Source of the DNA: an uncultured Chlamydiae bacterium
Lineage (GTDB): Bacteria; Chlamydiota; Chlamydiia; Chlamydiales; JAJFMA01
Direction of reading: 5' to 3'
Assembly (NCBI GenBank): GCA_963713615.1
Contig: CAVQMM010000001.1
Span: forward strand, 832,001 to 896,000
Length of the DNA: 64,000 nt
Part shown: positions 14,619 through 15,507 of the stretch, in pieces
How the letters are laid out: each line of letters begins with the position of its first letter
Numbering within the stretch: the stretch's first letter is position 1
The notes under the pieces: model-generated
Database searches by the model: none
What the model was told of the DNA's origin: nothing
The model's input: the letters and a program-made list of their open reading frames with translations, nothing else
Position numbers and translations under genes: made by a program

Positions 14619-15507
14619 GAGGTAATTGCAGAAGTAATTGGGCTCTCATGGATCGATTCTTTGAAAAAAAAATCACTTTTTTTTGTGAGAAGGCGATTCT
14701 GGAGAGCTTAAGTGGTATGGCACTATCCAGTCTGGAAAGACAGGCTTTTCTCCCTTCCCAGGCCCGAAGGGTCGATATTGCAACAGGCCATGGCATAGCC
14801 ATGGTATATGCCAGGAAGGGATTTCGCAGTCCGATGGACTGCTACAAGACGCCAGTTTACAAACACCATTTATGCATGCGCTTTATGGCAGCCCTACAGG
14901 CTGCTAAAACCGTTTTGGCATATACCATGGCATAGCCACATAGGCCTCAACCTAACAGGTCTTTTGAGCTTATATCTCAATGACTTAGGACTTCACAATC
15001 GTATCTCGGCGCGCAGCGCTTTGGAGTGCGGTCGCTTGCGACCGCTTTTCGTTCCTTGGGACGGCAATGCTAAACGGCATTGTATGGATTCGTCGAAGGC
15101 TGCATGTACTAACTATTTTACCCTTAGGGAATTATAGTGATGCCGTTGCACACGACCGTCGCAAGGAACCCAAAGCGGTCGCAAGCGACCGCACTCCAAA
15201 GCGCTGCGCGCCGAGATACGATTGTTAGGCTTAGGTTGAGGCCTATGTGGCATAGCCATGGTATATGCCAGGAAGGGATTTCGCAGTCTGAAGGACTGCT
15301 ACAAGACGCCAGTTTGCAAACACCATTTATGCATGCGCTTTATGGCAGCCCTACAGGCTGCTAAAACCGTTTTGGCATATACCATGGCGATGCCATGGCC
15401 TGTTGCAATATCGACCCTTCGGGCCTGGGAAGGGAATGACTCTCTCTTCACCGGCATCCGATTTTCAGGAAATTGACTTCGGAAAATCGGACTTCTGCAA
15501 TTACCTC
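14619..15507. mobile_element. Composite MITE copy A (TIR GAGGTAATTGCAGAAGT, 4-bp TSD ATAT) with nested REP cassettes
   Basis: 17-bp perfect TIRs, ATAT on both flanks, no transposase; homologous to 35073-38127. Confidence 0.88.

Follow-up and report, generated by a model that had tools for sequence, protein, structure and literature searches.

Nested miniature transposons and REPINs probably account for inverted and duplicated cassettes in a chlamydial genome

Overall organization of the two copies

The window analysed is a 64-kb stretch of a 3.97-Mb chlamydial assembly of 3 contigs (C1:832001–896000). It contains two copies of a modular element, A and B, each made up of an outer shell, short hairpin-forming junctions, an interior block and a central element, here called C (Table 1). 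Without its IS66 insertion, copy B measures 752 bp. Re-inspection of both copies bears out what a preliminary description of this DNA had reported: their ends and orientation are identical, and the central block is inverted between them, that of B being the exact reverse complement of that of A, with 0 mismatches. The limits then given for the central block (14936–15250 and 35390–38007) take in 3 nt of an 11-bp duplication on each side and have been corrected to those in Table 1; the inversion holds. The cassette of about 135 bp, said to occur twice in A and once in B, does so as a 134-bp block, the two blocks of A forming a direct repeat with 96% identity. The mini-hairpins said to mark every cassette boundary are indeed REP hairpins, but the unit is an 11-mer within a longer REP arm rather than a 9-mer. 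The junctions of A read TGGC-ATA-GCCA three times and TGGC-GAT-GCCA once, while the core triplets of B are ATC, GAT and GAT.

Table 1. Features of copies A and B (window coordinates)
Feature	Position	Strand	Remarks
Copy A, outer shell MITE	14619–15507	+	terminal repeat GAGGTAATTGCAGAAGT; 4-bp target duplication ATAT at 14615–14618 and 15508–15511
Left REP1 arm of the shell-borne REPIN	14751–14813	+	includes junction 11-mer J1, 14791–14801, ATA variant
REPIN1 interior, copy 1 in A (the 135-bp cassette of the preliminary description)	14802–14927	+	two private changes; likely a local tandem duplication
J2 in A	14928–14938	+	11-bp target duplication of the central MITE, first copy
Central element C in A	14939–15247	+	309 bp, assigned as IS4-type MITE; IS231-like ends; terminal repeat CATAGGCCTCAACCTAA
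REPIN2 within C of A	14995–15225	.	86-nt inverted arms 14995–15080 and 15140–15225; REP shared with the flanks of the second RAYT gene
J3 in A	15248–15258	+	11-bp target duplication of the central MITE, second copy
REPIN1 interior, copy 2 in A	15259–15384	+	one private change
Right REP1 arm in A	15373–15435	-	includes J4, 15385–15395, GAT
Copy B, shell MITE	35073–38127	+	4-bp duplication AATT; adjoins 9-mer GGAC/GTCC repeats
REPIN1 interior in B, single	between J1 35245–35255 and J2 35382–35392		copy B
Central MITE C in B, reverse of that in A	35393–38004	-	11-bp duplication TGGCGATGCCA at 35382–35392 and 38005–38015
IS66-family element in B	35463–37757	+	sits in REP2 arm of C; 8-bp duplication; tnpA/B-like ORF 35520–36101, TnpC 36184–37728

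This layout is far above chance, as judged by a fold z-score of -34 against 20 shuffles and by the 100 paired shell spans found across the genome, and the modular nature of the copies is confirmed. An Rfam search of the 64-kb window gave 0 matches. A coding role was considered for the ORFs overlapping the shells of A and B and was dropped, because none of these has a Pfam match. Elsewhere in the window, large ORFs of 1315, 1322 and 725 amino acids lie at 40965–48899 and 32759–34936 (the two that were scanned have no Pfam match), the segment 15529–15816 is partly repeated near 19653–19798 and 20990–21131, and a MITE of about 160 bp lies at 14221–14380. The latter has GGCCTT(A/G)TTCA ends and 7–8 bp duplications; it has 115 near-full copies, with 99–100% identity among the 14 listed.

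The shell family

Left shell ends occur 133 times in the genome and right ends 128 times, forming the 100 paired spans; BLAST of copy A gave 329 clusters. Five spans that probably each combine two elements were set aside (C1:109929, 1750929, 2641858, 3305142 and a long one at 3537720). In the 95 retained shells, C is absent from 41, at the left junction in 19 and at the right junction in 35. The shell end is a 17-bp terminal inverted repeat that is common to several MITE types of this genome and present in many relatives, with up to 128 matches per genome. The target is GWC-N6-GWC inside 9-mer tandem repeats. Among 72 single shells, the target duplication is 4 bp in 34, 5 bp in four and 13 bp in one, and 33 have none. 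In fourteen of these 33, the flanks derive from opposite arms of the repeat that hosts them, in patterns that are the reciprocal of those of 23 shells in tandem arrays. These flanks, the tandem arrays and collapsed forms of the shell fit a process in which shells exchange sequence with one another away from the hairpins.

The shell had been described as IS5/IS1182-like, and it is likely an IS1182/IS5-type MITE, as judged by its terminal repeats, its 4–5 bp duplications and a similar end at an IS1182 locus. The link to IS1182 is one locus with one visible end: the transposase at locus L214 scores 326 bits (cut-off 270), one end differs from that of the shell by 2 mismatches and the other lies off the contig. 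Locus L238 also has a shell-similar end, with scores under all cut-offs, and GAG ends together with 4-bp duplications are seen in a further IS1182 element. An autonomous element with shell ends was also looked for in this 99%-complete genome, and no IS1182 partner transposase was found: shell-like ends lead to host genes and not to transposases, and the ends of the DDE_Tnp_1 elements match the terminal repeat of neither the shell nor C. Scanning metagenomes for the exact shell end gave MITEs and chance hits only, among the matches listed, and a plasmid search with the left end gave nothing. A Bradyrhizobium IS1182 hit was rejected as partner, there being no terminal repeat around that one locus. 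The whole nested element was not found in 40 relatives, which gave short REP2-like matches only.

Several further shell-like arrangements were observed. Tandem arrays of 5–9 shells lie at C1:476526–478848, 1173286–1175435, 2273505–2280484 and 2600817–2603363; the first three share one 43-bp spacer and the fourth has 22-bp spacers. The left 40-bp flank of A (C1:846619) recurs at the shell at 2696265–2696993, with a different right flank. By eye, the spans C1:1137410–1138825 and 2059426–2061943 contain other insertions, namely fragments of a group II intron maturase-like ORF and a 398-aa IS110-like transposase. A degenerate shell end starts five near-identical stretches (C1:2385585, 2398259, 2426669, 2435991 and 3071387), followed in four by an Rhs-like ORF. 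In another assembly, MITEs of 69–379 bp (L096, L112, L118–L120, L131, L140 and L166) have the shell terminal repeat and mostly the same 9-mer target, with another interior. An IS1182-like element in four copies (L243, L246–L248; G433) occupies one site of repeated palindromic sequence, with flanks alike in all four; 4-bp duplications are present in both G433 copies checked.

The first REP family and its RAYT-type gene

The junction is a REP hairpin, REP1, and the 135-bp cassette is the interior of a REPIN, REPIN1. The preliminary description had pointed to a RAYT enzyme, and a RAYT-type gene is present elsewhere in the genome: an intact HUH/Y1 gene at C1:3243391, coding for 150 amino acids, is followed by an array of REP1 arms and REPIN1 interior. 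This array contains 14 REP1 halves, none with C. The REP1 hairpin also adjoins 7 of 24 orthologues of the gene, some on both sides, compared with 0 of 30 controls. The protein scores 22 bits with the RAYT model NF047646 (cut-off 80) and 57.6 bits with the IS200/IS605 model (cut-off 55), and when the array was inspected by eye a GTAG/GTGG foot 5' of the REP1 hairpin was not evident. Given a score under the RAYT cut-off and just over the IS200 one, and no GTAG foot, this would be an atypical REPtron; atypical REP/RAYT classes are among those described in PMC6006769. Within the genome, 224 of 275 REP1 halves lie within 420 bp of a shell end.

The central element

Element C, 309 bp long without the 11 junction bases, has perfect 17-bp ends. 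Genome-wide there are 95 C-family end pairs; by reading the list, 87 are C-type and 8 belong to sibling MITEs. The flanks of the 87 C copies form a perfect 11-bp direct repeat in 71 cases, an ATC/GAT hybrid in 8, a repeat with 1–2 mismatches in 4 and a degenerate one in 4. In 16 of the 71 perfect repeats, a local variant of the 11-mer (GGGC...GCCC, TAT or ATA) is copied on both sides. C is found in both orientations at both hairpins, and among 37 short copies with matched cores its orientation relative to the asymmetric junction core divides 21:16. The mean identity of 41 C copies is 99.5%, against 85% for the first 132 nt of their host shells, and one shell contains two C's of different haplotypes. 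The duplications, the two orientations and the difference in age between C and its shells fit repeated targeted transposition; with the 21:16 ratio, the identities and the two haplotypes in one shell, they indicate that the difference between A and B reflects two insertions. Three of the eight sibling MITEs, which have related ends, show 10-bp repeats in REP2. At window positions 19170–19620, two REPIN2 copies are joined by a sibling IS4-type MITE end (CATAGGCATCAACTTAA, at 19369), the sibling having 10-bp repeats in REP2 elsewhere.

The consensus target of IS231 is GGG-N5-CCC. In two other genomes (L052 and L057), small elements that share the end of C are flanked by repeats of 11 or 10 bp at GGG...CCC-type sites. 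The ends of C fit the signature CAT-------AA--TAA exactly, and its 11-bp repeat falls within the 10–12 bp listed with that signature for the IS231 subgroup in Table 1 of PMC2266710. On these sequence features, C is assigned as a separate IS4-type MITE with IS231-like ends, the IS231-like label resting on end signature and repeat length. At L051, in another chlamydial genome, an element with an IS4 transposase gene starts with the exact C end; the transposase scores 165 bits with NF033592 (cut-off 115) and has the YREK spacing, with an in-frame stop near the start. Four of five transposase loci homologous to L051 have an end at most 3 mismatches from that of C, and one of these homologous loci, L282, is a complete IS4 element with related ends. 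C thus likely depends for its movement on an IS4-type transposase acting in trans, whose identity we infer from these loci. A cognate IS4 transposase was not found in the 99%-complete genome itself, by protein query or with NF033592 over its cut-off, although C is very young. What lengthens the long C copies is an IS66 or IS1634-like insertion and not a transposase of C's own; 12 of 13 IS66 copies sit in REP2, all with 8-bp repeats.

The hairpin within C is a second REP, REP2, whose arrays flank a second RAYT gene in inward-facing disposition; the protein passes the RAYT model (NF047646, 83.9 bits, cut-off 80). Of 374 REP2 copies, 199 follow a C-family end, 26 follow a shell end and 150 follow neither. 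REPIN2 copies adjoin a shell-type terminal repeat at window positions 1290–1569 and 55535–55810, so the shell family appears to carry REPIN2 directly too. A third RAYT-type gene, at C1:3872600–3873800 (L032), has a different REP array on its flanks; the genome also contains two Y1 genes of greater length (L034 and L035).

Rearrangements of the interior

Insertion of C leaves part of the variation to be explained. Three paralogous loci, at C1:309695, 656695 and 3645703, share their flanks, and in one of them the interior is the inversion of another between REP1 arms, with 6 residual differences, while the third differs in the interior block only; the earlier claim that whole interiors can invert between REP arms is upheld at such paralogous sites. 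Inverted interiors were found in 4 of 13 scored shells with C at the left, 1 of 33 with C at the right and 0 of 31 without C, 18 shells being unscored. Given this bias and the real inversion in place, transposition alone is no explanation. Polarity is reversed in 3 of 85 interior-to-C junctions, A among them. When breakpoints were mapped across the genome-wide copies, nearly all boundaries fell at the junction; others lie inside the 134-bp block, where they are scattered in mosaic interiors, or inside the end of C, where the deletion that produced the sole empty-looking shell terminates. Since breakpoints are thus not confined to hairpins, the proposal that hairpins are the recombining sites is in part contradicted.

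In copy A, one variant is common to all three ATA junctions, the interiors together carry 3 private changes and C is consensus. The second interior is likely an older local duplication at a 7-nt CCATGGC repeat, with C inserted later. The order of events would be a point change from ATC to ATA, tandem duplication of the junction and interior at this repeat, and entry of C into the middle junction.

Discussion

The two copies are very probably a nest of ordinary mobile elements. A miniature shell, likely of IS1182/IS5 type, would carry the REP doublet REPIN1. The younger, 309-bp element C, for which an IS4-type transposase probably acted in trans, would have entered the REP1 hairpin many times, in both orientations and with an 11-base duplication. 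The doubled interior of A, the interior deletions, the whole-interior inversions and the tandem arrays would stem from ordinary recombination or template switching, for which the hairpin arms and the roughly 100 near-identical copies would serve as substrates. Template switching and recombination among copies suffice for such rearrangements. What can be seen directly is how the elements are layered, that C is flanked by 11-bp duplications and lies both ways round at both hairpins, that it is younger than its shells, and that REPIN1 arrays adjoin a RAYT-type gene; the identities of both DDE transposases are deduced. As the cassettes are nested mobile elements of known kinds, a new cassette-shuffling enzyme is likely unneeded. 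The interpretation in the preliminary description is therefore partly supported: cassette recombination, held responsible there for the A/B inversion and most of the copy-number variation, explains these less well than independent insertions of an IS4-type MITE with 11-bp duplications.

A RAYT-type HUH enzyme might nevertheless act in trans on single-stranded REP1 hairpins and catalyse the inversions, duplications and deletions of interiors, C itself having been inserted by nesting. The intact 150-aa HUH/Y1 gene beside a REPIN1 array, the inversion of interiors between 52-nt and apparently also 23-nt arms at paralogous sites, and the three junctions of reversed polarity speak for such an activity. 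We consider it improbable, given that crossovers within perfect arms cannot be placed, that the breakpoints of mosaic interiors are scattered, that short direct repeats at the hairpin base suffice for slippage, and that the C-free REPIN2 loop is never inverted relative to the C ends in the shells parsed, despite having its own RAYT.

A site-specific recombinase that uses TGGC-NNN-GCCA as crossover, and inverts, excises and integrates two kinds of cassette, was the model first proposed for this DNA. It would account for length steps of 137 and 320 bp, for the location of nearly all boundaries at the junction and for the ATC/GAT hybrid flanks of eight copies. A recombinase with an asymmetric core would fix orientation and leave hybrid sites, and the occurrence of C in both orientations (21:16) with rare hybrids argues against it, as do the full 11-bp variant on both sides in 16 cases, the transposon ends of C and the end of the lone deletion inside C; neither interior-to-interior nor C-to-C junctions were found among the shells examined. 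The orientation and duplication counts largely refute the model, which we regard as very unlikely. Integron cassettes, shufflons and pdif modules recombine conservatively, with no target duplication and an orientation set by the site; they resemble the present copies in having discrete modules with shared junctions, and differ from them in that an 11-bp duplication and free orientation are seen here.

Mis-assembly of a repeat family is extremely unlikely, even though the best sequencing run contains only 0.16 of the sampled genome words, because A and B each lie between flanks of their own, with the duplications ATAT and AATT intact, and show private changes, duplications follow local variants, and the assembly has only 3 contigs, with a copy on contig C3 obeying the same rules.

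All parts of the nest are of known kinds; what differs is their arrangement. ISRm22 of Sinorhizobium meliloti, as presented in PMC1525189, is likewise of the IS4 family, and has all its copies in REPs with the insertion centred on the palindrome; some of its flanks are hybrid, which is attributed there to copies recombining with one another. It differs in being autonomous with 6-bp repeats, where C is non-coding, measures 309 bp, makes repeats of 11 bp and carries a second REPIN. The IS231 subgroup and MIC231 share with C the end signature, the 10–12 bp repeats, the target specificity and transposase-less derivatives mobilised in trans (PMC2266710, PMC6199540). In the accounts consulted, descriptions of the subgroup come almost entirely from the Bacillus cereus group (PMC2266710), and MIC231 cassettes are 0.7–3 kb long and carry genes (PMC2266710, PMC6199540). 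Like the REPINs and REPtrons with RAYT/TnpAREP treated in PMC3116915 and PMC6006769, the present system has inverted REP doublets, a single HUH/Y1 gene with an array next to it and a genome with several REP families; unlike them, REP1 is without an evident GTAG/GTGG foot and the copies are mostly in a DDE-type shell and not free. With IS1182/IS5-family MITEs the shell has in common terminal inverted repeats, a short target duplication and the lack of a transposase, which PMC3184786 gives as general MITE features; according to the same source, the partner insertion sequence of the Nezha MITE occurs in another species only, much as the candidate partner of the shell is known from other genomes only. 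The shell differs in carrying a REPIN and in targeting GWC-N6-GWC in 9-mer tandem repeats. The open-access literature searched yielded no case of such nesting, or of REPINs travelling mainly inside DDE MITEs.

A broader reading combines REPINs as cargo of DDE MITEs (REPIN1 in an IS1182-like shell, REPIN2 in IS231-like MITEs homing to REPIN1 hairpins) with resident RAYTs that invert and duplicate the interiors in trans. As a whole it is unlikely; its cargo part is well supported by the position counts. If true, it would describe a multi-enzyme relay, with HUH and DDE transposases acting on one nested element.

For the nest of ordinary mobile elements preferred here, the consequences are that a candidate new recombination system is removed, and that a countable case of elements targeting and carrying one another is gained. 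The nest comprises five or six layers: 9-mer repeat, shell MITE, REPIN1, IS4-type MITE, REPIN2 and then IS66 or IS1634. It offers a tightly targeted IS4-type pair of end and target, open to testing, and suggests that DDE MITEs, instead of the RAYT, can drive the number of REPIN copies.
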